Part shown: in pieces, positions 29,109 to 59,595 of the stretch | Layout: every line of letters starts with the position of its first letter | Numbering within the stretch: the stretch's first letter is position 1 | NCBI GenBank assembly: GCA_934254815.1 | Contig: CAKQME010000004.1 | Coordinates: 45,984 to 109,983, forward strand | From: an uncultured Clostridia bacterium | GTDB lineage: Bacteria; Bacillota; Clostridia; Christensenellales; Borkfalkiaceae | DNA length: 64,000 nt | Reading direction: 5' to 3' | Made by a program: the position numbers and the translations under genes | The notes under the pieces: model-generated | Databases searched by the model: none | Seen by the model: the letters and a program-made list of their open reading frames with translations, nothing else | Told to the model about the DNA's origin: nothing

Positions 29109-30056
29109 ATGAAATTTATCGAACTTACGGTTTCCACAACGACGGAGGCTCAGGAACTCGTCGCGGATATTATGTGGAATTATACTAACTACGGCGTTGC
29201 GATAAGCGACGTTAAAGACGTTGCCGAACTTGTAAACGAACGCCGTTCGACATGGGATTATATCGACGAAGAAGTTCTGAAAGAACTCAATCGTAACGTA
29301 ACGCTCGTAAAAGCGTACATAGCGACGGATATTGCCGATAAAACCATAGCCGAAATAGAAAAAGATCTCGAAACCCTGCGCGAGAGGTGTAAGGGTTTTA
29401 TAAACGTCGGCAGTCTGGAACTAGTAAGACGAATCGTCGACGGCGACGACTGGATAGAGATTTGGCGTAAACATTATAAACCGATGAAATTCGGCAAGGT
29501 GGTCGTCTGTCCCGCCTGGATAGATTATCTGCCGCAGCCCGACGAAGTCAAGGTCGTAATCGACAGTAATATGGCTTTCGGCACGGGCGAGCATGAAACG
29601 ACTTCAATGGTCATCGAACTGATGCAGGAATATATTCCTTACGCGAACACCGTTATAGACGTAGGCACGGGGAGCGGTATATTGGGCATCGCCGCGGCAA
29701 AACTCGGCGCAAAACGCGTGTTTATGACAGATATAGACTATGTCGCGGTAAAGACCGCTTCGCATAACTGCGAAATGAACGGCGTAAAAGATAAATGCGA
29801 AGTCTGCCTTAACAATCTGCTTACCGAAAAGAAAATCACGGGCGAGTTGCTGCTTGCCAACATTACCGCCGACGTGTTGCTTATTCTTGCCGATACCGTT
29901 ACGGAATACGTAACGACGGGTGGAGTGATGATTATGAGCGGAATTATAAAGGGGCGGGTCGACGAAGTTATCGAAAAATATTCGTCGCTGGGCTTCGAAA
30001 CGGAAAAACGCAGAGATAAAGGCGAGTGGATCGCGCTCGTTATGAGGAAGATATGA
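29109..30056 (+). CDS. prmA: Ribosomal protein L11 methyltransferase
   Basis: The N-terminus 'MKFIELTVSTTTEAQE' parallels Bacillus PrmA. Also 'FGTGEHETT' and the SAM-binding 'VIDVGTGSGILGI'. Confidence 0.9.
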   Translation: MKFIELTVSTTTEAQELVADIMWNYTNYGVAISDVKDVAELVNERRSTWDYIDEEVLKELNRNVTLVKAYIATDIADKTIAEIEKDLETLRERCKGFINVGSLELVRRIVDGDDWIEIWRKHYKPMKFGKVVVCPAWIDYLPQPDEVKVVIDSNMAFGTGEHETTSMVIELMQEYIPYANTVIDVGTGSGILGIAAAKLGAKRVFMTDIDYVAVKTASHNCEMNGVKDKCEVCLNNLLTEKKITGELLLANITADVLLILADTVTEYVTTGGVMIMSGIIKGRVDEVIEKYSSLGFETEKRRDKGEWIALVMRKI

Positions 30057-31291
30057 AAGCTGTAGTGTTTACACTGGGCTGTAAAGTCAACAGTTGCGAG
30101 AGTTCGTCGCTTTTAAACGGACTTCATTCGCTCGGTTACGAAGTGTCCGACGAACTCGGTTATGCTGACCTGTACATAATAAATACTTGCGCGGTGACTG
30201 CCGAAGCGGAGAAAAAATCCCGTCAGGCAATAGCGCGCGCCAGAAAATTCAACCCGAATTGTAAAATTATCGTTACGGGGTGCGCGTCCGAAAAAGCTCC
30301 TGCCGATTTTGCGAAAAAACAAAACGTAACGCTGGTTACGGGTACGAAATCTAAAGACAAAATACTTTCCATGCTCTCCGAAACGGGCGAAAAGCTCTAT
30401 GAAGACGACGAGTATTACGAAGAATATCTTCCAGCGAAAACAGATCGCGACAGAGCGTTTATCAAGGTTCAGGACGGTTGCGATAATTTTTGCAGTTACT
30501 GCATAATACCTTATCTGCGCGGGCGTTCGCGTTCGAGAAAGAAAGAAAACGTACTTAAAGAGATTGAATATCTGTCTCCGCTCGAAGCGGTCATAACGGG
30601 AATAAACCTTTCGGCTTACGATAAAAATGGCGACGGGCTTCAGGGGCTTATAGAAGAGCTTATACACGTTGAGTGCAGAGTGCGGTTGGGGTCGCTCGAA
30701 GTAAACGTGATAACCGGAGATTTTTTAAGGACGCTTAAAACGCTGCAAGATTTCGCCCCGCATTTTCATCTGTCGCTTCAGTCGGGCAGCAACGCGGTGC
30801 TTAAAAGTATGAACCGACATTACACCCGCGAGGAATTTTTGGAGAAATGTCGGCTTATAAGGCGGTTTTTCCCGCTTGCGGCTATTACGACGGATATAAT
30901 AGTCGGGTATTCCACCGAAACCGAAGAGGACTTTCTCGACAGTTTGTCGCTTGCGGAGGCGGCGGAGTTTGCCGATATACACTGTTTCCCCTATTCGCGG
31001 CGCGAGGGAACAGTGGGCGCGAAACTCAAAGAACTCGATCCAATCGTAAAAGACGAGCGAATGAAGAGAATCACCGACTTGAAAATGCGACTTAAAAACG
31101 CTTTTATAGAAAAAAATATCGGCTTGACGGCGGAATTTATCCCCGAAGAGACCGTTGACGGTTATTCGGCGGGGTATACGGGCAATTATATTCGTTGTTA
31201 CGTCAAAGGCGAATTAAAACGCGGAAAATACAAAGTGTCGCTGTTGTCGGCTTTCCGCGACGGCGCGCTTGCCGAAGTGACTAAAAACTGA
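30053..31291 (+). CDS. mtaB: tRNA methylthiotransferase, MtaB-type radical SAM (MiaB/RimO family)
   Basis: UPF0004 N-domain 'FTLGCKVNSCES', radical-SAM 'CDNFCSYCIIP' and a TRAM-like C-terminus. The start overlaps the prmA stop (ATGA). The prmA-mtaB neighbourhood matches that of Bacillus yqeT-yqeV. Confidence 0.8.
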   Translation: MKAVVFTLGCKVNSCESSSLLNGLHSLGYEVSDELGYADLYIINTCAVTAEAEKKSRQAIARARKFNPNCKIIVTGCASEKAPADFAKKQNVTLVTGTKSKDKILSMLSETGEKLYEDDEYYEEYLPAKTDRDRAFIKVQDGCDNFCSYCIIPYLRGRSRSRKKENVLKEIEYLSPLEAVITGINLSAYDKNGDGLQGLIEELIHVECRVRLGSLEVNVITGDFLRTLKTLQDFAPHFHLSLQSGSNAVLKSMNRHYTREEFLEKCRLIRRFFPLAAITTDIIVGYSTETEEDFLDSLSLAEAAEFADIHCFPYSRREGTVGAKLKELDPIVKDERMKRITDLKMRLKNAFIEKNIGLTAEFIPEETVDGYSAGYTGNYIRCYVKGELKRGKYKVSLLSAFRDGALAEVTKN

Positions 31292-31307: not shown

Positions 31308-31649
31308 ATGGAAGACTGTTTGTTCTGTAAATTCGTAAACGGGGATATACCCGTGGATAAAGTGTTCGAAAACGATGACTTTATAATAATACGCGATATC
31401 GCGCCTATGGCGAAAAATCATTTTCTCGCCATACCGAAAAAGCATTTCAAGTATCTTTCCGAAATGACGGAAGACGAAAAACGGCAATTGCTTAATATTT
31501 TCGAAACGATACCCGCGCTTAAAAGTCAGCTTAACCTTGAAAACGGGTATAGGCTCGTGATAAATCAGGGAGACGACGCCGGGCAGACCGTTCCGCATCT
31601 TCATATTCATATTTTATCGGGTCAGAAAATGGGTTGGCAGCCCGCCTGA
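31308..31649 (+). CDS. HIT-family (histidine triad) nucleotide hydrolase
   Basis: 'CLFCKF' zinc motif and 'VPHLHIHILSG' histidine triad. Confidence 0.9.
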   Translation: MEDCLFCKFVNGDIPVDKVFENDDFIIIRDIAPMAKNHFLAIPKKHFKYLSEMTEDEKRQLLNIFETIPALKSQLNLENGYRLVINQGDDAGQTVPHLHIHILSGQKMGWQPA

Positions 31650-31657
31650 TACTGTAC

Positions 31658-31693
31658 GCGACCGAGATATAAACCTCGGTCGCGTTTATTTTT
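31658..31693 (+). terminator. Rho-independent terminator after the HIT gene
   Basis: gcgaccgag / ctcggtcgc stem with an 8-nt loop, followed by gtttattttt. Confidence 0.8.
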
Positions 31694-31765: not shown

Positions 31766-31794
31766 TTGACAATGTAAAGTCGAAGTGATATAAT
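31766..31794 (+). promoter_or_regulatory. Perfect consensus sigma-A promoter (P1) of the giant LRR gene
   Basis: TTGACA-N17-TATAAT, 180 nt upstream of the ATG at 31974. This implies a leader of about 170 nt. Confidence 0.75.
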
Positions 31795-31863
31795 ATTAGG
31801 CAAATAAAACGTGCGCGTTTACTTTAGCGTGATAAATTTCTATTTAACGCAAAATCTTCGTGA

Positions 31864-31902
31864 TATAAGCTGTACTTATACCTGCTATAAGCTCAGCTTA
31901 TA
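31864..31902. repeat. Left copy of the 39-nt inverted repeat (two 17-bp TATAAG-N5-CTTATA units separated by 5 bp)
   Basis: tataagctgtacttata-cctgc-tataagctcagcttata. It matches the reverse complement of 43073-43111 at 36 of 39 positions, with 30 consecutive identities (31864-31893 against 43082-43111). Confidence 0.95.
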
Positions 31903-31973
31903 GCATTATGAATAATATAAATTGTATGCATTAAAATTTTAATAATATGCAAAAATTTTTGAGGAGGTTCGAT

Positions 31974-34900
31974 ATGAACGGAAAAAACAAGTTGGTTGTT
32001 CTTCTGTTGGCGATTTTCGTCGCGATGACGGCTGCGTTCGGCGCGTCTTGTAAAGGCAAGCCGGAATCTACCGAAAACGGAATCGCTAAAAACGCAGAAT
32101 ACTATTGCGTTGCGGAAGCCGAAGAGTACGTCGTTACTTTAACGAACGCGAAAACTTATTTTTTGTCTGTCGCGGGTGAACGCAAAACCGGCGATTACAC
32201 GTTGAGCGAAAGCGGCGAGCTTAAACTTATCGTAGACGGAAACGAAGTTTCGGCAAGTATAAACGGCGACGAATTAGCCATAACTTACGGCGGTAAGTCC
32301 TATACGTTGCTTGAGAAAATCAAGAGAAGCGTTACGTTTGACAAGGGCGGGGCTACCGAAGTAAAGACGGTGACGAACGGTAAACCGGTTGAAAAACCCG
32401 CAGACCCTGCGGGTAAAGACGGTAAAGAATTTGTCGGCTGGTATGCTGCGGCGGATTACGGCGAAATATATAATTTCGCTGCACCAGTAAGAAGCGACAT
32501 CACCGTATACGCTCAATATATCGATACGGACGCGGGCGCGCGCGAGTTTACCGCTACGCTTAAAGACGGAACCGATAAAAAGATTTCCACTCATAACGGG
32601 AAAATTTACGGGCTTGAACCGCTTGCCGTCAAAGACGGAAAGGAATTCGACGGCTGGTACGTCAGCGATTTCAACGACGAAGCGAAACTCACCTATAAAT
32701 ATACCGACGAAGTTCTTAAAGAAAACGTCAACCTCTATCCCGTATGGAAAGGCGGTATTTACGGCGTAAAAGTCGCGGGCGACAATATAACCTGGAGCGC
32801 GAACAACGCCGTTGCGTTTAAAGTTACGATATCCGCTGCGGGGTTTGATAAAACTTTGCCCGTAACGAAGACGGAAGCGGAATGTAAATTTTCCGAAATG
32901 GCTGCGGGCGAATATAAAATCGTAATAACCGATAACGCGGGCGACAATAAATTCGAAGCTTATTATAACAATAAGGCTCTTGCTCGCGTATCCGATTTCA
33001 CCGTTGCCGAAAGCGGTATGCTTATATATAATCCCGTAGAGAACGCCGAAAAGTATATAATCACGGTCGATTGCGGAAATAAAAATCATAAACATACTTC
33101 GATAGATAACGGAACTTATACTTATTTCGATATTTCGGGCTGCGAAATGCAGAAAGGCGGCATAAAAGTTACGGTTAAAGCCGAAGCCGCGGGTTTAATA
33201 AGCTCCGAGGGGGTTTTCGTTTACGATAAAACGCTTGATAAAATCTCCGCGATAGATGTTAAAGACGGTAAACTCGTATGGAATGCCGTTGACAACGCTC
33301 TCGGTTACGTCTTAACGATAAACGGCGAAGAGATAAAACTCGACGCAAACGAATTTTCGTTAAAGGAATACGCCGAGGGAAAATACGATATAGAAATATA
33401 TCCCGTAAACTATAAATACAACAGCCCCGAAGCCGCAATATTGACGTATAATAAAACGCCGTTGGCGTCCCCCGCGGGGGTTGCCGTAAACGGCAACGTC
33501 CTTAAATGGAAATCGGTAGAAAACGCAACGGGATATTCCGTTAAATTGAACGGAACCGAATATACCGTTACCGCTAACGAGAAAGTTTTTGATTCCGACG
33601 ATATAAAGTCTTTCAATAAAGTTACGATTACGGCGTTTAACGAAACCGATAAGTCCGAAGAGTCCGACGTGTTCGAATTTGCCGACGATTCGCTTCGGGG
33701 GCTTAAATACGATTGCGGAAAGGTGTACTGGACTCCCGTCGTTGCGGCGGACAGCTATGCGGTGTCGGTCAACGGCGGCAAGGAAACAAACTATAATAAG
33801 GAGACGGTAAGCGCGCCGATCTCGTTTACCGAAAGCGGTAAAAACGTTATTACCGTATCTTATTATTATGGCGACGGGTCTTGCGGGGACACTCAGACCA
33901 TAACCGTTGACGTATATGAGATTAAATATATAGGTAAAAACGGACAGAGCGAGGTCGAGTATAAGGCTAAAGGCGATAAACTCGGTTTCCCTGCCGAAAA
34001 ACTTACCGTAACGGGCTTCGATATAGACGGTTGGTACGACGTACCCGACGGCGGAGCGAATAACGGCGCGAGATATCTTGCCGATAAGCTTTTAAAGTCG
34101 GGCGGAATTACGCTTTACGCCGATTTCTTGTCCAAGGCATACGACGTAACGCTTGTAAACGGCGACGAACAGACTGTCGAACAAGTTCGTTATAACGAAA
34201 CTTATACGTTAAGCGTTCCCGAAAGCGAGGACGAAAACCTTGTGTTCGGCGGTTGGTTCTTCCAGCCTAACGGAGTAGGCGATCAATATACGGATATGAG
34301 CGGCGTAAGTCTTAAAAAATGGAGCGCCGCGCATAACGAAGTTATTCTCTACGCCAATTGGTTGAGAGTATTCGAGTATACCTTAAACGGCACGAGAACG
34401 GGTTATATCGTTACCGAGGGAAAAGGTATTCCTTACGTTACGGAAGCGACGGTCAAAGATATAATGGGTACTTTGCCCGTAGTCAGCATTGACTCCCTTT
34501 CGGGCGCGGATAAACTCGAATATATTAAGATTCCCGACACCGTAAACTTCTCTGTCGGTATGAAAGAGGGCGTTGCCACAAGCGCGTTCGCGTCGTGTCA
34601 TAATCTTAAATCTATAATGATTTACGAAACGTCGGGCGTCGATAAATCGGGCTTTACTTCCGACGACGGAGCTGTTTATGTTACCGAAACCGACGGCGAT
34701 AAAACAACCAAGACGCTTGCGCTTATTCCTTACGGAAAAACGGGAACGTTTACTGTTGCATACGACGCTACCGCTTTGGCTACGGGCGCGCTTTCGGGTT
34801 CCGCATTGACAAAGGTAATAATACCCTCGTCGGTTACGGCAGTCGGAAACAACGCGTTCAAAAACTCTAAACTGCTTACCGAAGTCGAATTCCTTGCCGA

Positions 34901-37900
34901 AAAAGACGGCGAAGAAGCGAAAGAGCTTACATTCGGTCACAACGTATTTTTCGGTTGCGACGCGCTTGTAAAACTCACTCTTCCCGGCAGGCTCAAAGCA
35001 AGTTCTTGCGAGTTTGCAAGTTCTGTCAACGCAAACGCTAAACTTACGATGGGTTTCGATAAAGAAATCTTCGGTACTAACGCTTATAAAGCTACCGACG
35101 GAATTACTTCTCTTGAGAGAATAGACGTGGTCGGTAAAAAGGTCAATTATTCGTCTGTAGACGGAATACTTACCGATAAAGACGAAAAGACCGTTATATA
35201 TTGTCCCAGAGGCAGAACTGCGGACGTTACGTTGCCGAATACCGTCACCGAGATAGGAAACGCCGCGTTCAGAAATTGCGCGCTTATCGAAAACGTTTCG
35301 ATTCCCGGTACCGTCGCAACTATCCGCGAGGAAGCGTTTATGAGTTGTTCTAATCTCGCTTCGCTCGTGTTTGGCGGAGACGAGAACGACGGCGCGCTTA
35401 CGATTGAACAAGCCGCGTTTTACAGGGCGGGCAGACTTGAAAAAGTCACTTTACCCGCAAATCTTAAACGTATCGGACAGTATGCGTTTTACTCTGCGGC
35501 TTTAAGAGACGTTACCGTCGGGTGCGTCGGCGTAGACGACGGAACGCTGGAATTTGCCGACAATGCGTTCGGCAGTATTCCTATGCAGGGCTTTACTTCC
35601 GGTTTTGCGGTAACTAAACTTACTTTAGGTAAAGACACTCCGCTTATAGGTATATCTGCCGTGTTCGGGTATAAAATCGAAACGGTAGTACTCGATAAAG
35701 CTAATAAAAACTACTTTATCGATTCCGACGGGGCGTTGTACAGTGCGGATAAGACAAGACTTCTCTGCTACCCGAAAGGCGGCGCGACGGATATCGTTAT
35801 TGCCGACGGCGTTGAAGAAATCGACGCTAACGTGTTCAGAGAAAACGTAAATTTAAGAACCGTAAAAATTCCCGCTTCGCTCAAAAAGATAGGGGATAAC
35901 GCTTTCGCTCATTGCGAATTGTTGCAAAAAATAGAGTTTGCAAACGGCGATACTCCTATAACGATAGGCGACTTTGCTTTCAACGGCTGTAAGTCTCTTA
36001 TTTCCGTAGGGTTGCCGTCGGGTCTTACAAAGATAGGAGATAAGGCGTTTTATAATAACGCAAATCTTTCGTCGGTAACGTTCGGCGGAAATAAATTGAC
36101 CGAAATAGGCGAGTCTGCGTTCGCATATTGTAACGCGCTTACCGAAATAACTCTTCCGGAGGGGCTTGAAGTTATCGGTGACAGCGTATTCGTACAATGT
36201 AATTCACTCGTTACGGTTAATTTCCCCGCTTCGCTTGTAGAATTGGGCGAAAACGTATTCACTTATGTCAACGATGAGGGCTTGGCGAGATCCTGCGAGT
36301 CTCTTGCGGCGGTAAACTTCCACAAGGATAATGTGAAATACGAGTCGGTTAACGGTATAATGTACGAGAAAGTCGACGGAAAACCCAAGAATCTTATTTA
36401 TTGCCCCGTTATGTGCGGCGGTGAAGACGGCGTTGTCAAAATACCCGGTACGGTCGAAAACGTTGCCCCGAACGCGTTCTACGGCAATAAAGTCATTACC
36501 GAAGTAATATTCCTTAACGGCTCTGCCGACAGAGAGATAGCGCTCGGAGAAAAATTGTTTACCGGCGCGGATAAATTGACGAAAGTCACATTGCCGAACG
36601 GGTTGGAAACCATAGTAGATTTCTTATTGCAGGATACGGAGGTTAAAGAAATAACCGTACCGAATACCGTAAGAACAATATCCTGCAATGCATTCCTTGG
36701 AGCGAAAAAACTTGAAACGATAAATTTCGAAAGCGGAAATGAAGAATTATCTCTTACGATAGCCGACGGCATGGGTGGAAACGGTGCGTTTACGCAATGC
36801 ATAAGTCTCAAAGAAATCGAATTCCCCGAAAGAACAGTTAAAATAGGTGTTGCGGCGTTCGATATCGGCTATGGGTATACTTCTGCGCTTAAAAAGGTCA
36901 AGATACCTGCAAGCGTTACCGAAATAGGTAAATATGCTTTCCAAGGCTGCGACGCTCTCGAAACCGTAGAATTTGCGCCCGGCAGTAAACTTACGGCTAT
37001 CCCCGAATCGGCTTTCACAAACTCGAAGAATCTTAAAAATATCAATCTGCCCGAAAAACTTGTTACAATAGGTAATCAGGCGTTCCAGAATACGGGTTTA
37101 ACGGAAGTGACTCTGCCGTCTTCCGTAACGTCGATAGGAAACGCTTTCAATAACTGTAATTCTTTGAGAAAAATTACGATAGGCGACGGCGTTACGTCGA
37201 TACCTATGAGCGCGTTCCTTGACTGTAAATTCCTCAGCGAAGTCAATTTGGGTAACTCCGTAACGGCGATAGGCACATATGCTTTTAAAAATTGCGTGTC
37301 GCTTAAGGAGATTGCTCTTGGAGATAAGGTAACGACTATAGACGAACAGGCGTTCTATAATACTTCTCTTAAAAAGATAAAAATAGGCGCGGGCGTAACT
37401 TCTGTCGGAAACGAAGCGTTCAAATTCTCGAAACTTACCGAAGTCGAATTTGCCGTCGATAATGCGGGCGTCGCCGCGCTTCAGAGTATCGGTGACGAGG
37501 CGTTTGTCGGGACTGAAATAACTAAATTCGAAATTCCGGAAACGGCGAACGCGTTGACTTTGGGCGGTTCGTTGTTCAAGGGCTGCATAAGCTTAACCGA
37601 ACTTAAAATTTCGTCTAAGGTAACGTCGCTCGGTAATTCGCTTGACGGTTGCGTAACGCTCGATAACGTTACCGTTGCCGAAGAAAACGAAAATCTTAGC
37701 GTAAATAGCGGAATGCTTTGCAGTAAAGACGGGCATGTGGTGTATTGCGTATTCGGCGTTGCCGAGGGCGAATTGAGATTGCCCGACGGTATTCAGGAAA
37801 TTAAAGCCGACGCTTATAAAGGTCAGCCGAACATTACCAAAGTTATCATACCCGAAACTATCAAGACGATAGGCGCAAACGCGTTCGCAAACTGCGGAAA

Positions 37901-40900
37901 TCTCGTCGAAATCGTGTTTATCAAAAACGCGCCCTCGATTGAAAGTATAGGTAATGGCGCGTTTGAAAATTGTACGTCGCTGAAAAGCGTCAATCTTCCC
38001 GAAAGCCTCGAAGCGGTTGGCGATAAAGTGTTCAACGGCTGTTCTGCTCTCGCTACCGTATCTTTAGGCGGAGAAATAAAGACGATCGGTTCTTCCGCGT
38101 TTAAGGGTACGGCGTTAAAGTTTATAGAAATTCCCGCTTTGGTAACTTCTGTCGGTTCCGACGCTTTCGGCGGAACAAAGATCGCTTCCGTGACGATACC
38201 TGCAAACGTAACGACTATAGGAGATTCGGCGTTTGCCGGCTGTTCCGAACTCGCTTCGGTAATTTTCGCGGATAATTCGAGCCTTACTTCCGTAGGAAGC
38301 AATGCGTTTAACGGTACTGAAATTTCGGCAATAACGCTTCCGTCGACGGTTACTTCAATCAGCGCAAATATGCTTGCCGGTACTAAGATAACTTCGTTTG
38401 TCGTTCCCGAAAACGTAACGTCTATAGGAAATTATGCGTTTGATGGCATGGCTTCGCTCGAAAACATAACGATTGACGTTAAAGGTCTTAAAGAAATCGG
38501 AACGTATGCGTTCAGAAATTGTACGTCGCTTAAGAGTATTGAAATACCCGAGGGCGTTACAAAGATTAACCAGGGGGCTTTCTTCGGCTGTACTAATCTG
38601 TCGTCTGTTACGTTGCCTGAAACTTTGACTTTGTTAGGTACGTTAAGACCGAACACTTCTTCGGGTAAAAGGAATCCTGATTACGGTTCTGTATTCAGAG
38701 ATTGCAAGTCGTTGAAAAATATTGATTTGCCCGACAAAATTTCGTATATCGGACCCGATACGTTTAACGGGGCGGGGCTTGTGAGCGTAAAACTTCCCGC
38801 GTCGCTTAAATATCTTACTAACAAAAATATATTGTCGTCGAAAGCGCAGTCTCCGTTAAAGAGTAAAGCTTCGGGACAGTTTGCTAATTGCGTTGACCTT
38901 GAAACGGTAATACTTCCCGCGGGACTTCAGGCGATTGGCGCAAGCGTATTTAAAAACACGCCTAAGCTTAAAACTATGTATTATGACGGAGCAGGTTCCG
39001 CAGACGGAAACTGCTTGCCGATAAGTGCAGTTGAATTGAGTATAAGCGCGTTCGAGGGGTGTGGTTTAGAAAATATTAAAATACTCGGCGCGTTAAGCGA
39101 CAATACGAAATTCTATTTAGGGCAATGTTTTAAATATTCTTCTATAAAAAGAGTTGATTTGAGCGAGTCAAGACTCGCGTCTGTTCCGAAACTGTTATTT
39201 AAATATGCAGGTGATTTAGAAGAAGTTATTTTACCGGATTCGGTAACGGCAATAAAAAATGACGCTTTCTATGGTTGCGATAAACTTAAAAACGTAAATT
39301 TCCCATCAGGTTTAACAACTATAGAGATTAATGCGTTTAACGGTTGCTCCTTACTTGAAGAGGCTGATATTTCGAGTGTGACATCGCTTGCTTCCAGCGC
39401 GTTTGAGGGTTGTAGCAGTCTTAAAACCGTAAAACTCAGCGAATCGCTCACGGCAATACCCAATAATGCGTTTAAGGGTTGTTCGTCGCTCGAAAATATA
39501 GAGATACCCGATAACGTGACTGCGCTTGGCAGCGGATGTTTTGCTTCCTCCGGTCTTACTACTATTCGTTTATCCGCAAAGGTTACTTCTATCGGTGGAG
39601 GCGCGTTATCCGCACCGTCGCTTATAAGAATAACGGTTGATAAAGACAATGCGAAATACTCCGTTAAAAACAGTTTCCTTATTGAAGACGGAGTTAAAGT
39701 CGTTGCTTTCCCCAACGGTAAACCGTTTGTTGCCGACGAAACGCTTGTGCTTCCCGACGGCGTGACGAATATCGCTTCCGACGTTTTCGCAAATAACGTA
39801 AACGTTAAAAAGATTTCCGTTCCGTCTACGGTTGTGGAAATTTCCGACGGCGCGTTCCGCTCTTTCAAGGGGCTTGAAGAGGTGATACTTGCCGACGGCA
39901 TAAAAGTAATAGGTAATGACGCGTTCAGCGGTTGCGTTGCGCTCGATAAGATAAATCTTCCGTCGTCGCTTGTGAAAATAGGAGAAACGGCGTTTAACGG
40001 TTGCGTTTCGCTTGCGGCTATAGATTTTGCAACTACGAATCCCGAAGTTGTTTTGAGCGACGGCGCGTTCGGCGGCACAGGGCTTACGACGTTGGATTTG
40101 TCTATGCTGAATATGAAAACGATGGCGAATAATTTGTTCGCTGAATGTGAATCGCTCATCGAGGTGAAGTTACCGGAAAATCTTGAAAAATTGGGCAATA
40201 GCGCGTTTAATAGTTGCATAGCGCTTGAAAATGTTGAATTTGGCGGTAAATTAACCTATATCGACATTGCGGCGTTCAACGGTTGTTCGGCTTTGCGTTC
40301 GGTTGCGTTACCTGAAAGTTTGACGGATCTTATGCAGTCGGCGTTCCAGAATTCGGGTCTTACTTCTATAACTCTGCCGAGCGGGGTATCGGACGTTAAA
40401 AATGCAGTGTTCAGCGGTTGTAAGCAACTTGTCGAATTTAAAGCTTCGGGAGAGTTGACTAAATTATACGATAGCGCATTCAACGGTTGCTCGTCGCTTA
40501 AATCTATAACAATAGGCTCTGCTGTCGAGAGTATAGGTAAAACGGCGTTCAGCGGGTGTTCTGCGCTCGAAACGGTAACGTTCGAAAACGGCGCCAATCC
40601 GATTTTCGGAAAACAAGCGTTCGAAAATTGTACTTCGCTTAAAACGATAACGCTTCCTGCGGGTATTACCGAAATTCCCGAAAAGACGTTCAGCGGAGCA
40701 GGGTTGACTGAAATAGTTCTTCCCGATGCGGTTACGACGATAGGCGACAGAGCGTTTGAAAATTGCGCTTCGCTTACAAAGGTAACGCTTCCCGCGAAAC
40801 TTTCGGTAATTCCGAGCTATATGTTCTATGGTTCGGGTATAACGGAAATAACTCTTCCCGAGACCGTCCATACTATCGGCTCGAATGCTTTCGGCAATTG

Positions 40901-41279
40901 CGAAGCTCTTAAAACGATAACGCTTTCCGAAATGATTACGGAAATATCCGAATCGGCGTTTTCGGGTTCGGGGTTGACGGAAATAACGTTGCCCGATTCC
41001 GTAAGGACTATAAATGACTGCGCGTTTATGAATTGTAAATCGCTTGTAAACGTCACGCTCGGCAACGGATTGTGCGAAATCGGTAGAAACGCGTTCGACG
41101 GTTGTACGAAAGTTAAGTCTGTCGTTATTCCGTCGCGCGTGTATTCGCTTAAAAACGCGTTCAACGGTTGGGGCGAAGATCAGACTATAACGTTCGCTCT
41201 TAAAAAATCTCAGGCGGCTAAACTGTTCGGTACCGAATGGCTGAGCGGTTGCGAGGCAACGATAGCTTATAACGGCTGA
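31974..41279 (+). CDS. Giant BspA-type leucine-rich-repeat (LRR_5) surface lipoprotein, about 3100 aa
   Basis: RBS GAGGAGG lies 6 nt before the ATG at 31974; the listed start at 31947 lacks an RBS. Lipobox 'TAAFGASCKG'. Listeria-Bacteroides repeats are present ('..GKEFVGWY..'), as are five Fn3-like modules ('W..V..A..Y'). About 2250 aa of 'IP.SVT.IG..AF..C..L' repeats follow. Confidence 0.9.
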   Translation: MNGKNKLVVLLLAIFVAMTAAFGASCKGKPESTENGIAKNAEYYCVAEAEEYVVTLTNAKTYFLSVAGERKTGDYTLSESGELKLIVDGNEVSASINGDELAITYGGKSYTLLEKIKRSVTFDKGGATEVKTVTNGKPVEKPADPAGKDGKEFVGWYAAADYGEIYNFAAPVRSDITVYAQYIDTDAGAREFTATLKDGTDKKISTHNGKIYGLEPLAVKDGKEFDGWYVSDFNDEAKLTYKYTDEVLKENVNLYPVWKGGIYGVKVAGDNITWSANNAVAFKVTISAAGFDKTLPVTKTEAECKFSEMAAGEYKIVITDNAGDNKFEAYYNNKALARVSDFTVAESGMLIYNPVENAEKYIITVDCGNKNHKHTSIDNGTYTYFDISGCEMQKGGIKVTVKAEAAGLISSEGVFVYDKTLDKISAIDVKDGKLVWNAVDNALGYVLTINGEEIKLDANEFSLKEYAEGKYDIEIYPVNYKYNSPEAAILTYNKTPLASPAGVAVNGNVLKWKSVENATGYSVKLNGTEYTVTANEKVFDSDDIKSFNKVTITAFNETDKSEESDVFEFADDSLRGLKYDCGKVYWTPVVAADSYAVSVNGGKETNYNKETVSAPISFTESGKNVITVSYYYGDGSCGDTQTITVDVYEIKYIGKNGQSEVEYKAKGDKLGFPAEKLTVTGFDIDGWYDVPDGGANNGARYLADKLLKSGGITLYADFLSKAYDVTLVNGDEQTVEQVRYNETYTLSVPESEDENLVFGGWFFQPNGVGDQYTDMSGVSLKKWSAAHNEVILYANWLRVFEYTLNGTRTGYIVTEGKGIPYVTEATVKDIMGTLPVVSIDSLSGADKLEYIKIPDTVNFSVGMKEGVATSAFASCHNLKSIMIYETSGVDKSGFTSDDGAVYVTETDGDKTTKTLALIPYGKTGTFTVAYDATALATGALSGSALTKVIIPSSVTAVGNNAFKNSKLLTEVEFLAEKDGEEAKELTFGHNVFFGCDALVKLTLPGRLKASSCEFASSVNANAKLTMGFDKEIFGTNAYKATDGITSLERIDVVGKKVNYSSVDGILTDKDEKTVIYCPRGRTADVTLPNTVTEIGNAAFRNCALIENVSIPGTVATIREEAFMSCSNLASLVFGGDENDGALTIEQAAFYRAGRLEKVTLPANLKRIGQYAFYSAALRDVTVGCVGVDDGTLEFADNAFGSIPMQGFTSGFAVTKLTLGKDTPLIGISAVFGYKIETVVLDKANKNYFIDSDGALYSADKTRLLCYPKGGATDIVIADGVEEIDANVFRENVNLRTVKIPASLKKIGDNAFAHCELLQKIEFANGDTPITIGDFAFNGCKSLISVGLPSGLTKIGDKAFYNNANLSSVTFGGNKLTEIGESAFAYCNALTEITLPEGLEVIGDSVFVQCNSLVTVNFPASLVELGENVFTYVNDEGLARSCESLAAVNFHKDNVKYESVNGIMYEKVDGKPKNLIYCPVMCGGEDGVVKIPGTVENVAPNAFYGNKVITEVIFLNGSADREIALGEKLFTGADKLTKVTLPNGLETIVDFLLQDTEVKEITVPNTVRTISCNAFLGAKKLETINFESGNEELSLTIADGMGGNGAFTQCISLKEIEFPERTVKIGVAAFDIGYGYTSALKKVKIPASVTEIGKYAFQGCDALETVEFAPGSKLTAIPESAFTNSKNLKNINLPEKLVTIGNQAFQNTGLTEVTLPSSVTSIGNAFNNCNSLRKITIGDGVTSIPMSAFLDCKFLSEVNLGNSVTAIGTYAFKNCVSLKEIALGDKVTTIDEQAFYNTSLKKIKIGAGVTSVGNEAFKFSKLTEVEFAVDNAGVAALQSIGDEAFVGTEITKFEIPETANALTLGGSLFKGCISLTELKISSKVTSLGNSLDGCVTLDNVTVAEENENLSVNSGMLCSKDGHVVYCVFGVAEGELRLPDGIQEIKADAYKGQPNITKVIIPETIKTIGANAFANCGNLVEIVFIKNAPSIESIGNGAFENCTSLKSVNLPESLEAVGDKVFNGCSALATVSLGGEIKTIGSSAFKGTALKFIEIPALVTSVGSDAFGGTKIASVTIPANVTTIGDSAFAGCSELASVIFADNSSLTSVGSNAFNGTEISAITLPSTVTSISANMLAGTKITSFVVPENVTSIGNYAFDGMASLENITIDVKGLKEIGTYAFRNCTSLKSIEIPEGVTKINQGAFFGCTNLSSVTLPETLTLLGTLRPNTSSGKRNPDYGSVFRDCKSLKNIDLPDKISYIGPDTFNGAGLVSVKLPASLKYLTNKNILSSKAQSPLKSKASGQFANCVDLETVILPAGLQAIGASVFKNTPKLKTMYYDGAGSADGNCLPISAVELSISAFEGCGLENIKILGALSDNTKFYLGQCFKYSSIKRVDLSESRLASVPKLLFKYAGDLEEVILPDSVTAIKNDAFYGCDKLKNVNFPSGLTTIEINAFNGCSLLEEADISSVTSLASSAFEGCSSLKTVKLSESLTAIPNNAFKGCSSLENIEIPDNVTALGSGCFASSGLTTIRLSAKVTSIGGGALSAPSLIRITVDKDNAKYSVKNSFLIEDGVKVVAFPNGKPFVADETLVLPDGVTNIASDVFANNVNVKKISVPSTVVEISDGAFRSFKGLEEVILADGIKVIGNDAFSGCVALDKINLPSSLVKIGETAFNGCVSLAAIDFATTNPEVVLSDGAFGGTGLTTLDLSMLNMKTMANNLFAECESLIEVKLPENLEKLGNSAFNSCIALENVEFGGKLTYIDIAAFNGCSALRSVALPESLTDLMQSAFQNSGLTSITLPSGVSDVKNAVFSGCKQLVEFKASGELTKLYDSAFNGCSSLKSITIGSAVESIGKTAFSGCSALETVTFENGANPIFGKQAFENCTSLKTITLPAGITEIPEKTFSGAGLTEIVLPDAVTTIGDRAFENCASLTKVTLPAKLSVIPSYMFYGSGITEITLPETVHTIGSNAFGNCEALKTITLSEMITEISESAFSGSGLTEITLPDSVRTINDCAFMNCKSLVNVTLGNGLCEIGRNAFDGCTKVKSVVIPSRVYSLKNAFNGWGEDQTITFALKKSQAAKLFGTEWLSGCEATIAYNG

Positions 41280-41308
41280 TAAATAATATAAAAAATCAGC
41301 AGAAAAAG

Positions 41309-41357
41309 AAAGGTTGCGTTTCTATTCTTAAAAAGATAGGAGCGTAACCTTTTTTTG
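41309..41357 (+). terminator. Terminator/attenuator after the giant LRR gene
   Basis: 17-bp stem (three G-U pairs) aaaggttgcgtttctat / ataggagcgtaaccttt with a 10-nt loop, followed by ttttttg. Confidence 0.65.
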
Positions 41358-41497
41358 CTTTCCCCGACATGAAAACCGAATTGTATGGGGTAAAGGGCGA
41401 TGAAACTGTATTCTTGCGGTTAAAGACCGTTAAATCGGTTGCTAATATTTCGTCGATGTGCTAAAATATATGGGATATTTGTTTATAGGAGTAAAAA

Positions 41498-42829
41498 ATG
41501 TCTTCTACGGAAAACGAAATGACGCTTATTCAATTCTTCAAGGTGATAGGCAAAAGCTGGAAAAAACTTTTGGTTTACGCTTTGTCGAGTATAATTATCG
41601 CAACTGCCGTAATGTCGGTGGTAAACGTGTGTACGGATACCCGCCACGCCTCCGCCGTTATTACTTCGGGCAATGCGGAAGATAATACGCTTAATATGCT
41701 CGCTCAGGAAAAAAACGAGGTGCTGGCTTCGGCTGTCGCGGAATTGTTCGCAACCGACGCCGCAAGACAGGAAAAAATCATTTCCGCGCTTACGCCCAAT
41801 CTTACCGTTACCGCGCCTGCGGAAACAAAAGATACGAAAACCGACGCGACTTCCGTGCAATTTCTAATAGATATCGAAGAGGATAAATCTCTTGGCTTGT
41901 CGGCAAATCAATATAAGGCGTTGGCAGACGGCGTAACGAGGGGCTTTATCAAAAAGCTTTCGTCGATAGGCGAACTCGAACAACTGATCGCTTTCGATTA
42001 TAATATCGACTCTAATATCTCCGAACTGGAGTATATTCAGGTTGCTTACGACGTCACCGATATGCTTAAAAATTTAAGGGGAATAGTAAAGGCGTCGCTT
42101 TCGACTATGACCTATTATAATTCGGCTGCGGGAGATTTCAAGGGGACAAACGGGCGTTCTCTTAACGAAATAGTCGCTTCGCTCGATTCTTATATCGACG
42201 CTGCCGACAGAGTTACCGATACGATAGTGAGCTTGCGTCTGAGCAATAAAAACGCGGCGGTCTCCGCTAAAGATTATCTTAAAAACGCTTACGATATAGC
42301 CGTTATCGACGCGAAACGTTACAGCGATTTCGCCGCCGAAACCGATAAAGAACTTCAATATTATAAAGATTTGAAAATAACATTGTCCGTTACGGATAAA
42401 AACAACGTGCTTGTGCAGGATTTCGCTAAGATATATAACGAACTTACTCTGAGAAACGAAACGGCGCAGAAAAACGCCGCCGCGGCTCAGAAAATAGCTT
42501 CCGTTCTCGAATTGCGTTATAACGCATATAAAGACCTTACCCCCGATCAGCTCAAACCGTCTACCGAAACCGACGGAACTACGACAAAGCTCAAAAATCT
42601 CTACGAGGTCACTTCTTCGGTTATAGAAGAGTATAACGCGGTGGCGGCGGAGTATGAATCCAGCAGTTACGCGGCGTATTTGTCGCGCTCGACGAATGCG
42701 AAAATATATGTTTCACGCGTGTTGTCGGTAAAAATAATGCTTATAGTCGACGCTGCGCTGTTGGTTATCTCATTGATAGTCGCTTATGCTCAGACTTTTG
42801 ATAAAATGAAACGTAACGGCAGTCTGTAA
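41498..42829 (+). CDS. Wzz/polysaccharide-copolymerase-like bitopic membrane protein
   Basis: The N-terminus 'EMTLIQFFKVIGKSWKKLLVYAL' plus a TM helix resembles the Wzz/CpsC N-terminus. A long helical ectodomain and a second TM helix at the C-terminus follow. RBS AGGAG. Confidence 0.5.
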   Translation: MSSTENEMTLIQFFKVIGKSWKKLLVYALSSIIIATAVMSVVNVCTDTRHASAVITSGNAEDNTLNMLAQEKNEVLASAVAELFATDAARQEKIISALTPNLTVTAPAETKDTKTDATSVQFLIDIEEDKSLGLSANQYKALADGVTRGFIKKLSSIGELEQLIAFDYNIDSNISELEYIQVAYDVTDMLKNLRGIVKASLSTMTYYNSAAGDFKGTNGRSLNEIVASLDSYIDAADRVTDTIVSLRLSNKNAAVSAKDYLKNAYDIAVIDAKRYSDFAAETDKELQYYKDLKITLSVTDKNNVLVQDFAKIYNELTLRNETAQKNAAAAQKIASVLELRYNAYKDLTPDQLKPSTETDGTTTKLKNLYEVTSSVIEEYNAVAAEYESSSYAAYLSRSTNAKIYVSRVLSVKIMLIVDAALLVISLIVAYAQTFDKMKRNGSL

Positions 42830-42844
42830 GTTGTCGTTCAGGCG

Positions 42845-42884
42845 CGAGCCGCCCGCATTTGCGGGCGGCTCGTATTATTTTTTT
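42845..42884 (+). terminator. Strong rho-independent terminator
   Basis: 12-bp GC-rich stem cgagccgcccgc / gcgggcggctcg with a 4-nt loop, followed by tattattttttt. Confidence 0.9.
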
Positions 42885-43012
42885 ACGCGGAAATGTTGAA
42901 TATTTTTCGAATAAATTTTGCATAAATGAATAACCGTATTTTGTTTTTTATTATCGGAAGATGAAAATTTAATGGCGGAAAGCATTTTTTTTGCTTAACG
43001 TATTCAAAACTC

Positions 43013-43041
43013 TTTACATTTTCGGGCGTTTGTGGTATACT
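43013..43041 (+). promoter_or_regulatory. Sigma-A promoter (P2) of the MoxR-vWA-LRR operon
   Basis: TTTACA-N17-TATACT with a TGn extension, 159 nt upstream of the ATG at 43200. Confidence 0.65.
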
Positions 43042-43072
43042 TACAAACAATTATAACTGGGCGAGTTATAAT

Positions 43073-43111
43073 TATAAGTACAGCTTATAGCAGGTATAAG
43101 TACAGCTTATA
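43073..43111. repeat. Right copy of the 39-nt inverted repeat, preceded by a third palindrome TTATAAC-N7-GTTATAA (43051-43071)
   Basis: tataagtacagcttata-gcagg-tataagtacagcttata, which is the reverse complement of 31864-31902 at 36 of 39 positions. Confidence 0.95.
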
Positions 43112-43199
43112 CCTCGACGAAACTTAGGATAATTTTTAATAAAAAACCTTATTTTTCGTCAAGTTTCGCCCGAAAAATCTTTTTTAAAGGAGAGAAGCT

Positions 43200-44246
43200 A
43201 TGAAATCGGTAAAATTGTTCGAAAAGTATTATAAGCGCGTTGCTCGCGAAAGCATGACGAAAGCTGTTATCTGCGGCTTGATAATCGGGTTTGCGGCTAT
43301 GTTTATAACGGCAATCTTATTTTGGTTTTTCAATCCCAAGCTTTTTTGGCTTGCGTTTATCGCGCTTGCTGTAGGCGCGGGCGTTTCAGCTCCGTTATTT
43401 TATCGTTATAAATTCAAACCCACGTCGAGCGCAGTCGCAACGCGTATAGACGAGTTGGGCCTTGAAGAAAGAATGATAACCATGAACGAGCATATGGGCG
43501 ACGAATCTTATATCGCCAAAAGACAACGCGAAGACGCGGTAAAAACGCTCGGCACGATAAGTTCCGACCTTATTAAAATCGTGGTAAGTATTCCGCTTAT
43601 TATAGCCGCGTGCTTTGCGGCGACGCTCGGCGCGGGTATGACTACCGTCGGCGCGCTTGCTAATGCCGGGGTAATCGACGGAGGAAAAGATATAATCGAC
43701 GATATAACCAGAGAAGACCCGATTTACTACGATGTCGAATACGACACCCGGGGCGACGGCGAAATCGTCGGGGATATCGTTCAGAGAATCGAGAAAGGCA
43801 AAGACGCCACCGAGATTTACGCCGTAGCGGGAGACGGTTATGTGTTCTCCTGCTGGGTCATAAAAGGTCAGAAAGAAGCCGGCGAACCGTATCGTCAGGA
43901 TACCAAGATCGAAGAGGATATGAAGATAATCGCGGTGTTCGAGCCTGCCAACGGCGACGGTGAAGGCGAAGGTGAAGGCGATGGCGATGGCGAAGATCAG
44001 GGCGACAGCGAAAAGCCCGGCGACGGCGACGGGCAGGGTAACGACGGCAATAGTAACAATAACGGCGGCATAAGCCCCGGCGGTTCTTACGTCAGCAACG
44101 ATCAGGTGATAGACGGTAAACAGGACTATAAAGACCATTACGACGCCGCAAGAGAAGAAGCTACGGATAACGCTCGCGATAACGGAAATCTTACTGACGA
44201 AGACAGAGACGCGATAGACGGATATTTCAACATTATTAAAAAATAA
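43200..44246 (+). CDS. Membrane protein with a Listeria-Bacteroides-type repeat and an acidic Gly/Asp/Glu low-complexity tract
   Basis: Two N-terminal TM helices and a third hydrophobic segment. Also 'YAVAGDGYVFSCWVIKG' and 'GDGEGEGEGDGDGEDQGDSEKPGDGDGQGNDGNSNNNGG'. It is the first gene of the MoxR operon. Confidence 0.7.
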   Translation: MKSVKLFEKYYKRVARESMTKAVICGLIIGFAAMFITAILFWFFNPKLFWLAFIALAVGAGVSAPLFYRYKFKPTSSAVATRIDELGLEERMITMNEHMGDESYIAKRQREDAVKTLGTISSDLIKIVVSIPLIIAACFAATLGAGMTTVGALANAGVIDGGKDIIDDITREDPIYYDVEYDTRGDGEIVGDIVQRIEKGKDATEIYAVAGDGYVFSCWVIKGQKEAGEPYRQDTKIEEDMKIIAVFEPANGDGEGEGEGDGDGEDQGDSEKPGDGDGQGNDGNSNNNGGISPGGSYVSNDQVIDGKQDYKDHYDAAREEATDNARDNGNLTDEDRDAIDGYFNIIKK

Positions 44247-44273
44247 AAAATTTAAAATACAGAGAGTAGAAAA

Positions 44274-45272
44274 ATGATAACAGAAAAGGACATTGAACAG
44301 TTCAGCGCACAATGCAACGAGATTTTTAAACAGGTAAGCAGAGACGTTATAGGTCAGAAAGACGTAGTCGAAGGCACTATCGTAGCCATGATAGCGGGCG
44401 GTAACGTACTTCTCGAAGGCGTTCCGGGGGTCGGCAAGACAAGACTTGTAAGATCGCTCGGAAGAGTTTTCGATCTTCCGTTCTCCCGTATCCAGTTCAC
44501 GCCCGACCTTATGCCGGCGGACGTTACGGGTACTAACATTATAGTAAAGGACGAAGAGGGCAACTCGACGTTCAAATTCCAGCCCGGACCTATTTTCAGT
44601 AACATTATCTTAGCCGACGAAATCAACCGTGCGACGCCCAAAACTCAGTCCGCGTTGCTCGAAGCAATGCAGGAACATACCGTTACGGTAATGGGCGTTT
44701 CGAGAAAACTTGCAGAACCGTTCTTCGTCCTTGCGACGCAGAACCCCATAGAACAGGACGGTACTTATCCGCTTCCCGAAGCGCAGATGGACCGTTTCAT
44801 GTTTAAACTCATCGTTCCGAACCCCAGCCTCGAAGAGCTTATGCAGATAGTCGATATGACGCAGAAGACTATGGCGGAGGTCGCGGAAGCGGCTTGTAAC
44901 GGCGAACAACTTCTCAGAATGAGAGAAACGGCGAACCAGATTCCCGTAGCGGAAGAAGTTCTCCGCTATGCGATGACTTTGACTTCGGCAACCCACCCCG
45001 ACAGCGAAAACGCTTCGGAAGCTGCCAAGAAGTACGTCAGAGTCGGCGCAAGCCCGCGTGCGGGTCAGGCTCTTATTTCAGCTGCAAAGGTCGTCGCTCT
45101 GATAAAGGGCAGATTCAACGTTGCGTATTCGGATATCAACGAACTTGCTTATCCCGTTCTTCGTCACCGTCTTAAACTCAATTTCGAGGCTATCGCGGAG
45201 AGAATTTCGGCAGACGAGATCATTAAGATGATAGTCGAAGAAGTCGGCAAGACGTTTAAAGGCAAAAAGTGA
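44274..45272 (+). CDS. MoxR-family AAA+ ATPase
   Basis: Walker A 'GVPGVGKT', Walker B 'ILADEINRA', 'PKTQSALLEAMQE', and a length of 332 aa. Confidence 0.9.
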   Translation: MITEKDIEQFSAQCNEIFKQVSRDVIGQKDVVEGTIVAMIAGGNVLLEGVPGVGKTRLVRSLGRVFDLPFSRIQFTPDLMPADVTGTNIIVKDEEGNSTFKFQPGPIFSNIILADEINRATPKTQSALLEAMQEHTVTVMGVSRKLAEPFFVLATQNPIEQDGTYPLPEAQMDRFMFKLIVPNPSLEELMQIVDMTQKTMAEVAEAACNGEQLLRMRETANQIPVAEEVLRYAMTLTSATHPDSENASEAAKKYVRVGASPRAGQALISAAKVVALIKGRFNVAYSDINELAYPVLRHRLKLNFEAIAERISADEIIKMIVEEVGKTFKGKK

Positions 45273-45318
45273 TCGCTCGCGGAATTTACGCGGCGGTTTG
45301 TGACTTGGAGTTCGCAAA

Positions 45319-46221
45319 ATGAAAGTTTCGTATTTAAACGACAAATTTTTCAGTCGTCTCGAAACGCTGTCCTTAAACTTAAAATCTAATCTGGCAGGAT
45401 ATTTCGGAGGAAAGCACCTTGTTAATTCCTACGGTCAGACCGTCGAGTTCGCAGATTTCCGCGAATATCAGTTAGGCGACGATATACGTCGTATAGATTG
45501 GAACTTATACAGCCGTTTCGAAAAATTTTTCTTGAAATTATTTACCGACGAACGTCAGATGCAGATTCAGATTTTTCTCGATTGTTCTGCGTCGATGGGT
45601 AAAGACGATCCGAACAAGGCGGCATACGCGCTGGGCGCAGCCGCCGCGCTCGGATTTTTGGCTGTTCATAATATGGATAAAGTTACGTTCAATATTATGA
45701 AAGGCGAAAAGACCTCTAATCCGTTCGGTACCATAATAGGTAAAAACTCCTACTTCCGCGCTGTAAGTCAGCTCGAAGAGGTTACTTTCGACGGCGAGGC
45801 GGACATTGAAAAATGCGTCGCTTCCTGCCCCGATACAAGCGCGAATAACGGGCTTTCGGTTATCATATCGGACTTTATGACCGACAGCGACTGGAAGAAA
45901 GCCGTCGATTATCTGCGCTATAAACACAGACAAGTTCTGCTCGTTCAGGTGCTTACGCCCGACGAACTCGGCCCCGCTTACGACGGGCGCGTTACGCTTA
46001 TAGACTCCGAATCGGAGGGCGTTGACGATACGAGCAAAAATATGAGAATCAGAATAACCCGCGCCGAACAGAAAGCGTATGAGGCGGCTTTGAAAGATTT
46101 TAAGCAGGATATGCGTACATTCTGCGCAAAGCGTGACGTCGACTACGTTTCAGTAAGCACCGACCAGCCCATTGAAAAGGTTTTGTTCGGAGAGTTGTTA
46201 AAGGTTGGTGTAATCGAATGA
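45319..46221 (+). CDS. DUF58 (vWA-like) protein, MoxR partner
   Basis: 'FADFREYQLGDDIRRIDWNLYSR' is the signature DUF58 motif. A degenerate vWA 'FLDCSASM' follows. Confidence 0.85.
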   Translation: MKVSYLNDKFFSRLETLSLNLKSNLAGYFGGKHLVNSYGQTVEFADFREYQLGDDIRRIDWNLYSRFEKFFLKLFTDERQMQIQIFLDCSASMGKDDPNKAAYALGAAAALGFLAVHNMDKVTFNIMKGEKTSNPFGTIIGKNSYFRAVSQLEEVTFDGEADIEKCVASCPDTSANNGLSVIISDFMTDSDWKKAVDYLRYKHRQVLLVQVLTPDELGPAYDGRVTLIDSESEGVDDTSKNMRIRITRAEQKAYEAALKDFKQDMRTFCAKRDVDYVSVSTDQPIEKVLFGELLKVGVIE

Positions 46222-48281: not shown

Positions 48282-48297
48282 GGGGAGGAGGAAATTT

Positions 48298-51195: not shown

Positions 51196-51252
51196 TCGGG
51201 TTTACCGCGCGGGTAGCGTTAAAACGCATACCCGCATAATCGGAGGACTTTA

Positions 51253-54171: not shown

Positions 54172-54239
54172 TCGAATTTAAGTCGCGGCGACGTAATAAA
54201 CTGTTATAAATTTTTCTCTATAAAGGAGAGTTAAAACAT

Positions 54240-59447: not shown

Positions 59448-59462
59448 ATGCAAAGATTAAAT

Positions 59463-59494
59463 ACTTCCCCCCGAAAAGGGGGAAGTGTTTATTT
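59463..59494 (+). terminator. Rho-independent terminator ending the 16-kb MoxR-LRR operon
   Basis: 9-bp stem acttccccc / gggggaagt with a 6-nt loop and a T-rich tail gtttattt. Confidence 0.8.
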
Positions 59495-59566
59495 AAACGG
59501 CTTGCGGTTTAAAAAGTGAAAATTTAAACATAAAACGATTTTATTCGCTATACGGCTTATAATTAT

Positions 59567-59595
59567 TTTACATTTTTTAAAATTTGTTGTAGAAT
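59567..59595 (+). promoter_or_regulatory. Sigma-A promoter of the S8 peptidase gene
   Basis: TTTACA-N17-TAGAAT, 79 nt upstream of the ATG. Confidence 0.5.

Follow-up and report, generated by a model that had tools for sequence, protein, structure and literature searches.

The locus described here lies in 64,000 nucleotides (nt) of DNA from an uncultured member of the Clostridia, a species represented in human-gut metagenomes; this whole 64-kb stretch is called the window below, and all scans for repeats, units and profile matches refer to it unless another locus is named. Two transcription units of the window, one encoding a giant surface protein with leucine-rich repeats (LRR) and the other a long operon with MoxR, DUF58 and vWA genes, each carry in their leader an array of short palindromes, and these two arrays, which stand in inverted orientation to each other, are the subject of this analysis. 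A promoter scan returned two near-consensus promoters of the sigma-A type, one before each array. The features of the locus are as follows.

29109-30056, plus strand: PrmA (Pfam).
30026-31291, plus strand: MiaB-like radical-SAM protein (Pfam).
31308-31649, plus strand: HIT (Pfam).
31656-31685, plus strand: terminator-like hairpin, an 11-pair stem followed by a T-run; it ends the PrmA / MiaB-like / HIT unit and lies upstream of P1.
31766-31794, plus strand: P1, sigma-A-type promoter, TTGACA-17-TATAAT with TG (12/12).
31864-31902, no strand assigned: left array, two 17-bp palindromes (31864-31880 and 31886-31902), about +63 to +101 from P1; profile E = 2e-9.
31974-41279, plus strand: giant surface protein of 3101 amino acids (aa) with LRR_5 repeats of the BspA type and a Flg_new domain (Pfam LRR_5, 1268 bits in 20 stretches); ribosome-binding site GAGGAGG before the ATG.
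41498-42829, plus strand: 443-aa protein without a family; hydrophobic N- and C-terminal segments, read by eye as transmembrane helices.
42844-42873, plus strand: strong terminator-like hairpin, 13 pairs (11 G-C) followed by a T-run; it separates the two transcription units.
43013-43041, plus strand: P2, sigma-A-type promoter, TTTACA-17-TATACT with an extended -10 TG (10/12).
43051-43071, no strand assigned: third palindrome, TTATAAC-N7-GTTATAA, about +4 to +24 from P2.
43073-43111, no strand assigned: right array, made up of a 17-bp palindrome that occurs twice in the same sequence (at 43073-43089 and at 43095-43111), spanning about +25 to +63 from P2; inverted relative to the left array.
43200-44246, plus strand: 348-aa membrane/Flg_new protein (Pfam), first gene of the downstream operon (43200-59447).
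44274-45272, plus strand: MoxR AAA+ (Pfam).
45319-46221, plus strand: DUF58 (Pfam).
46218-48281, plus strand: BatA-vWA (Pfam).
48298-51195, plus strand: vWA (Pfam).
51253-54171, plus strand: LRR_5 protein (Pfam).
54240-59447, plus strand: Flg_new protein (Pfam).

A search of the window for repeats joined the two arrays as the arms (31855-31902 and 43073-43120) of an inverted repeat of 48 nt that is 88% complementary and has 11170 nt between its arms. Within it the 39-nt core 31864-31902 is the reverse complement of 43073-43111 at 36 of 39 positions, 30 of them consecutive, exactly as an earlier reading of the sequence (hereafter the original prediction) had claimed, and the longest exact inverted match is the 30-nt stretch TATAAGCTGTACTTATACCTGCTATAAGCT at 31864-31893. 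Both arms consist of two exact TATAAG-N5-CTTATA units whose centres are 22 bp apart, again in agreement with that reading, and the third palindrome that it had placed before the right copy is real. Its positions for the two copies, about 65 and 25 nt past the predicted start sites of P1 and P2, also hold, the arrays beginning at about +63 and +25. The four exact units in the arms are the only ones in the window, in which units with up to two mismatches number 13 against 3.8 expected. The units being palindromic, the two arms are also identical at 29/39 positions when compared in direct orientation.

The claim that a 30-nt match by chance is negligible needs qualifying. The repeat does rank first among the inverted repeats of the whole window, the second best being 37 nt at 76%; the naive figure of 4^-30, however, overstates the case, because most of the 39 positions are constrained by a recurring half-site, which makes an identity of 30 nt far less improbable than that figure implies. 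Moreover, three of the four 17-mers are identical, non-symmetric centres included, which points to a recent homogenisation in this lineage. The 30-nt identity is specific to this lineage, and recent homogenisation, not functional need, is the best account of it.

The anatomy of the element was derived from a logo in which 44 half-sites from 11 arrays were pooled. The recognised unit is longer than the hexamer and reads G(-2)-n-T-A-T-A-A-G-Y-W, with 1.4-1.7 bits per position in the T A T A A core, 0.5-0.7 bits each in the outer G (-2) and in G, Y and W, and 0 bits in the centre of the dyad. The gap within a unit equals the gap between units (5 nt), and the array is a series of four alternating half-sites with a strict period of 11 bp, which places all four on one face of B-DNA; this equal period also means that any two good arrays look alike in both orientations. 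In the relatives described below the contact positions are conserved above the spacers and dyad centre, and it is the centres and spacers that vary. The half-sites are related by dyad symmetry and lie one helical turn apart, as in an operator bound by a dimer. Direct repeats of the LytTR type were considered and rejected, since what is conserved from species to species is dyad symmetry.

Related loci were reached through homologues of the 348-aa protein and were scanned for the double site with a pattern of 24 specified positions; in shuffled sequence the expectation is 0.07 scores of at least 18 per 64 kb. The loci, the identity of their homologue to the 348-aa protein and the double sites found are listed here.

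L051: 88% identity; double sites at 137 (22/24) and 9880 (21/24).
L052: 83% identity; double sites at 141 (20/24) and 9878 (21/24).
L053: 53% identity; double sites at 196 (20/24), 376 (18/24) and 9944 (19/24).
L054 and L055: 53% identity.
L063: 50% identity; double sites at 213 (20/24), 383 (18/24) and 9944 (19/24).
L064: 50% identity.
L057 (GCA_964327245.1): 47% identity; double site at 9923 (21/24) in the right leader, the left leader being outside the fetched locus.
L058: 42% identity.

The order giant LRR gene, 348-aa gene, MoxR, DUF58, BatA-vWA, vWA, LRR_5 and Flg_new, all on one strand, is kept in L051, L052, L053, L057, L058 and L063. In four related species of gut Clostridia (L051, L052, L053 and L063) the double site is present at both orthologous leaders, that of the LRR gene and that of the 348-aa homologue, and scores of at least 19 are confined to those two intergenic regions in each 21-kb locus; the one further score of 18 comes from L051 115, an extra unit in phase with the left site there and immediately upstream of it. 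Similarly, a profile built from the 11 arrays found the two window sites at E ~1e-9, with the next match at E = 0.07. Among strains at 99.4% identity the arrays are identical.

The position of the arrays relative to the promoters is also preserved. The right arrays begin 31-33 nt past the -10 element in the window, L051, L053 and L057, in all of which P2 or its equivalent is present, and the left arrays begin at about +40 to +63, with equivalents of P1 kept in L051 and L053. The right cassette, meanwhile, is flipped in place in L053 and L057 relative to the window, L051 and L052, the distance to the promoter being unchanged. Thus, at the 15 asymmetric positions the right array of the window matches that of L053 at 11 in inverted and 3 in direct orientation, whereas it matches that of L051 at 10 in direct and 2 in inverted orientation; the right arrays of L053 and L057 agree in direct orientation. 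The element is a symmetric site with conserved contact positions, and its orientation is immaterial.

In addition, L053 and L063 contain one more array, 67 nt before the -35 element of the LRR promoter, past the terminator of the preceding gene and untranscribed from that promoter. This copy is conserved throughout, although its flanks are poorly conserved, and stands out as an island; together with the leader array about 180 bp away, it brackets the LRR promoter, a layout that is classic for looping repression.

The double-palindrome pattern was also scanned in public collections of genomes, metagenomes and viral contigs. One match, in a metagenome-assembled genome of the Clostridia from goat colon (L016), repeats the layout of the window: a 12/12 TTGACA-17-TATAAT promoter, of the same type as P1, is followed 43 nt on by the perfect double site TATAAGTTAAACTTATA-TGGGG-TATAAGCATTACTTATA, and then by a ribosome-binding site and the gene for a membrane-anchored surface protein, which shares a repeat domain with the LRR protein of the window. 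The other matches lie in unrelated contexts that have no gene in common with the window, and were treated as other systems or chance; where the context could be annotated it consisted of replication/helicase genes (AAA_25/DnaB-like, SNF2 helicase) and small helix-turn-helix (HTH) proteins.

Environmental and viral contigs among these have the 17+5+17 arrangement with the recurring unit TATAAGCAWTRCTTATA (L038 3843-3881, L043 8791-8829, L048 6727-6765, L050 3683-3721, L015 1224-1262, L040, L045, L042 and L044). Sites of the TATAAGCAWTRCTTATA type may be a separate family of phage/plasmid operators or iterons. The 348-aa protein has homologues (48-51% identity) in phage-like contexts as well, at L056 10001-11077, L065 650-1684 and L066 736-1770, where the neighbours are a 2804-aa tape-measure protein (PhageMin_Tail), or small open reading frames (ORFs) along with DNA polymerase III alpha and an HNH protein. 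Literature searches on the motif and the gene cluster returned nothing relevant.

On balance we consider it probable that the arrays are conserved operators for one symmetric DNA-binding regulator with sequence specificity that co-controls the giant LRR gene and the MoxR/Bat-type operon. A shared operator array was among the hypotheses of the original prediction and is the one that gained from the comparison: four more species have the double site in the two leaders with its distance to the promoter conserved, the half-sites are retained in either orientation, and L016 has the same succession of promoter and site before an unrelated surface-protein gene. The conserved half-sites, the flip, the copy upstream of a promoter and the 11-bp period together favour recognition of duplex DNA. 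The sites, their symmetry, their conserved positions and their indifference to orientation are seen in the sequences, whereas repression, a roadblock mechanism and the kind of protein involved are inferred. The regulator would probably be an HTH dimer, with two dimers to each array, and once bound it would most plausibly stop promoter escape or elongation; in the species of L053 the second array, upstream of the promoter, could also loop it. By either route both units would be co-repressed. The alternative geometry, in which the arrays serve as upstream activator sites for a second promoter 3' of them, was rejected: no convincing -35/-10 pair is found there, and the L053 site ends 18 nt before the ATG.

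It should be emphasized, however, that several observations weigh against an operator. The nearest relatives, L051 and L052, carry degraded half-sites, and L058, the relative at 42% identity, has no site at either leader; because of this degradation and absence the element is, to judge from these genomes, dispensable in some lineages. Sites that overlap the promoter are commoner among operators than sites with centres at +25 to +100. The RNA of the right leader folds unusually well (z = -4.35, palindromes included), which leaves some room for a role at the RNA level. The main weakness is that no cognate regulator was found among the candidates in the window.

Near the cluster there is a single HTH gene, whose product is an XRE-type protein of 203 aa with a C-terminal hydrophobic region (27425-28036, minus strand). 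It was rejected as the regulator, as its homologues (about 74% identity) adjoin a GDSL lipase with the LRR/MoxR cluster not nearby and no motif found there; in the window the profile scan detected no site in the gene's own upstream region. The XRE protein is itself very well conserved, at about 74% identity in many gut Clostridia, and its gene is always divergent from the GDSL lipase gene in the relatives examined. It matches weakly to a transmembrane-domain family, and a listing of longest ORFs hides the gene under an over-extended CitMHS ORF. ROK proteins were also set aside, those of the window and beside the L016 site being unrelated to each other, as were the 443-aa and 348-aa proteins, which have hydrophobic membrane-type segments and no match to a DNA-binding family.

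It could be argued that an inverted repeat with 30 perfect nucleotides, bracketing a module with P1 outside and P2 inside, consists of the recombination sites of an invertible 11.2-kb segment, so that one inversion would cut both the LRR gene and the MoxR operon off from their respective promoters, P1 and P2, and create phase variation. The original prediction had offered this as a hypothesis, and the comparison does not bear it out. In L051, L052, L053 and L063 the longest exact inverted match between the leaders is 9-10 nt, the level of chance, yet the sites are kept; the role of the arrays in these four relatives thus needs no recombination-competent repeat. Every assembly of the window species, at least six of them independent and from different samples, has a single orientation: besides the window itself, L001 spans both junctions, L025 and L026 the left, and L032, L033 and L034 the right, all with identical arrays in the orientation of the window. 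The relatives all show the same orientation of the segment, and the comparison of assemblies and related genomes that had been proposed as a check found the flipped segment in none. Pfam scans of the larger ORFs of the 64 kb gave no recombinase family, in keeping with the earlier remark that the window has no recombinase gene. That Logan contigs break at the repeats was rejected as evidence of inversion, for they merely end inside the repeats and are uninformative on it; such breaks are what we would expect where an assembler with k = 31 meets a repeat of 30 nt. Inversion is very unlikely on this evidence, and it is left a small probability because a consensus assembly can hide a minor inverted sub-population. 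A restricted version, for which we see a similarly slight chance, is that in this lineage only the homogenisation of the arrays created a 30-bp repeat, near the lower limit for homologous recombination, at which RecA or an unlinked recombinase would invert the 11.2-kb module at low frequency. If so, a single inversion would silence the giant LRR adhesin together with the MoxR/Bat-type operon, and the operator pair would have been co-opted as a phase-variation switch.

An interaction at the level of RNA takes two forms. The pairing of the two leaders in trans, another hypothesis of the original prediction, is not supported by the comparison: long complementarity exists in this lineage only, the cassette flips strand and the stems do not covary. 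Indeed two palindromic arrays in opposite orientation produce leader-leader complementarity automatically, and a conserved RNA-RNA interaction between the leaders finds no support in these sequences. The other form is that the leader element acts as a hairpin, either as RNA or as the non-template strand in the transcription bubble, and recruits a factor for processive antitermination or for pausing, as RfaH/ops and LoaP do, or sets the stability of the mRNA. This would suit sites that lie downstream of promoters in the leaders of units of 9-16 kb, and in the well-folding right leader both units form hairpins inside an outer helix; the flanking helices show a few double-sided changes in an alignment with L051 and L052, three sequences being too few to judge. 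The left leader, in contrast, is unremarkable (z = -1.5). In a two-hairpin model 82.6% of cells pair as opposed to 81.6% in shuffled alignments, 23 of 132 cells are without a standard pair, double-sided changes number 2 only and the changes break pairs. The flip of the cassette between lineages alters the loop sequences, the extra array of L053 and L063 stands upstream of the promoter, and a strict 11-bp period of half-sites fits duplex DNA and is meaningless for hairpins. A search of Rfam gave 0 hits at the gathering score and chance-level ones only at E <=1, and no NusG-like gene was seen in the window. We consider such a hairpin unlikely, though with a better claim than inversion. Around the right array (43051-43071 and 43112-43175) the GGGCGA in the centre of the third palindrome is complementary to a UCGCCC some 110 nt further on, and a helix between the two could enclose both units as well as a third hairpin, CGACGAAA...UUUCGUC; in L051 and L052 the arms of the third palindrome are only partly kept and its centre, cgggyra, is kept.

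The degradation of the sites in L051 and L052 and their absence from L058, together with the comparable 17+5+17 arrangements in unrelated contigs of a phage- or plasmid-like kind, would also be expected if the arrays were a functionless relic, decaying or neutral, of an old duplication or of a palindromic element resembling repetitive extragenic palindromes (REP) or miniature inverted-repeat transposable elements (MITE), homogenised here by chance. Elements of the REP- or MITE-like kind have many dispersed copies and are variably present at orthologous positions, whereas the 64-kb window contains two copies only and these recur at orthologous positions in relatives. In addition, the distance to the -10 element is conserved, the sites are the same in strains at 99.4% identity, the upstream copy of L053 is a conserved island, and the independent occurrence in L016 has the same layout of promoter, site and gene. 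A relic is thus a distinctly poor candidate, and the operator remains the reading that we prefer.

Operators of this form are familiar from several systems. The lambdoid repressor operators (lambda OR/OL; P22 c2) are likewise tandem 17-18-bp palindromes separated by about two helical turns, a spacing at which dimers can bind cooperatively, and likewise stand as arrays at two places that are kilobases from each other; moreover, TnAAG / CTTnA, the core of the half-site, seems to resemble the P22 operator ATTTAAG-N4-CTTAAAT. In contrast to the lambdoid case the spacing within the unit is N5, not N4, the genes are chromosomal and encode surface proteins, the sites are 3' of the start and not over the promoter, and no repressor gene is adjacent. 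The ARG boxes of ArgR/AhrC, paired 18-bp AT-rich palindromes 2-3 bp apart, have a similar distance of about 21-22 bp from centre to centre, and one oligomer binds both palindromes on one face of the DNA; their half-site, however, is TGAAT as opposed to TATAAG, the targets here are unrelated to arginine metabolism, and the position relative to the promoter differs. Repressors that act as roadblocks or by looping (CcpA/cre, CodY and PurR in Firmicutes; lac O1/O2/O3; gal OE/OI) provide the precedent for operators downstream of the start and, in the pair that brackets the promoter in L053 and L063, for a second array upstream of it, although the motif fits none of these regulators.

The locus also shares features with invertons (Hin/hix; the RecV switches cwpV and flgB of Clostridioides difficile; the Mpi-controlled promoters of Bacteroides), in which inverted repeats flank a segment that controls the expression of surface proteins and lie between promoter and gene. 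It differs from them in its length of 11.2 kb, as opposed to a few hundred bp, in that no recombinase was found in the window, in relatives without repeat identity and in the one orientation found in assemblies. The ops/RfaH and LoaP elements are, similarly, short conserved elements in the 5' leaders of very long surface-structure operons; they are strand-specific, however, whereas the present element is a flip-tolerant palindrome array of duplex DNA with one copy upstream of the promoter in L053 and L063.

Several features of the surroundings stand apart from the arrays. The 443-aa gene, between the LRR gene and P2, encodes a protein with a long central region between its hydrophobic ends and without a match in Pfam or NCBIfam. 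It is absent from L051, L052, L053, L057, L058 and L063, which pass directly from the LRR gene to the 348-aa gene, and, being confined to the window species, looks like a lineage-specific insertion. In L057 three 108-nt direct repeats (88-97% identical) and a 38-nt repeat (9274-9650) fill the 950 nt that separate the LRR gene from the 348-aa homologue. Past the Flg_new gene of the window about 1.5 kb (59447-60994) are devoid of tRNAs, of Rfam hits and of ORFs that match a family, and an imperfect inverted repeat of 37 nt joins 60217-60253 to 61086-61122. Elsewhere in the window a 208-nt direct repeat, 76% identical and with a spacing of 234 nt, occupies 8529-8970 within a 920-aa ORF (6361-9123) that has no family match.

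The best reading of these comparisons is that four G-n-TATAAG-Y-W half-sites with an 11-bp period make up a previously undescribed cis-regulatory motif of a familiar operator kind. The locus also carries a caution, in that long inverted repeats made of palindromic operator units can mimic the boundaries of invertons. The 39-mer is a concrete bait for capture of the regulator by DNA affinity, and the motif a search pattern for its regulon. To our knowledge nothing has been known of how these organisms control their host-facing surface proteins; the motif would couple a giant BspA-type LRR surface protein with the MoxR/DUF58/BatA-vWA operon in uncultured Clostridia of the human gut.

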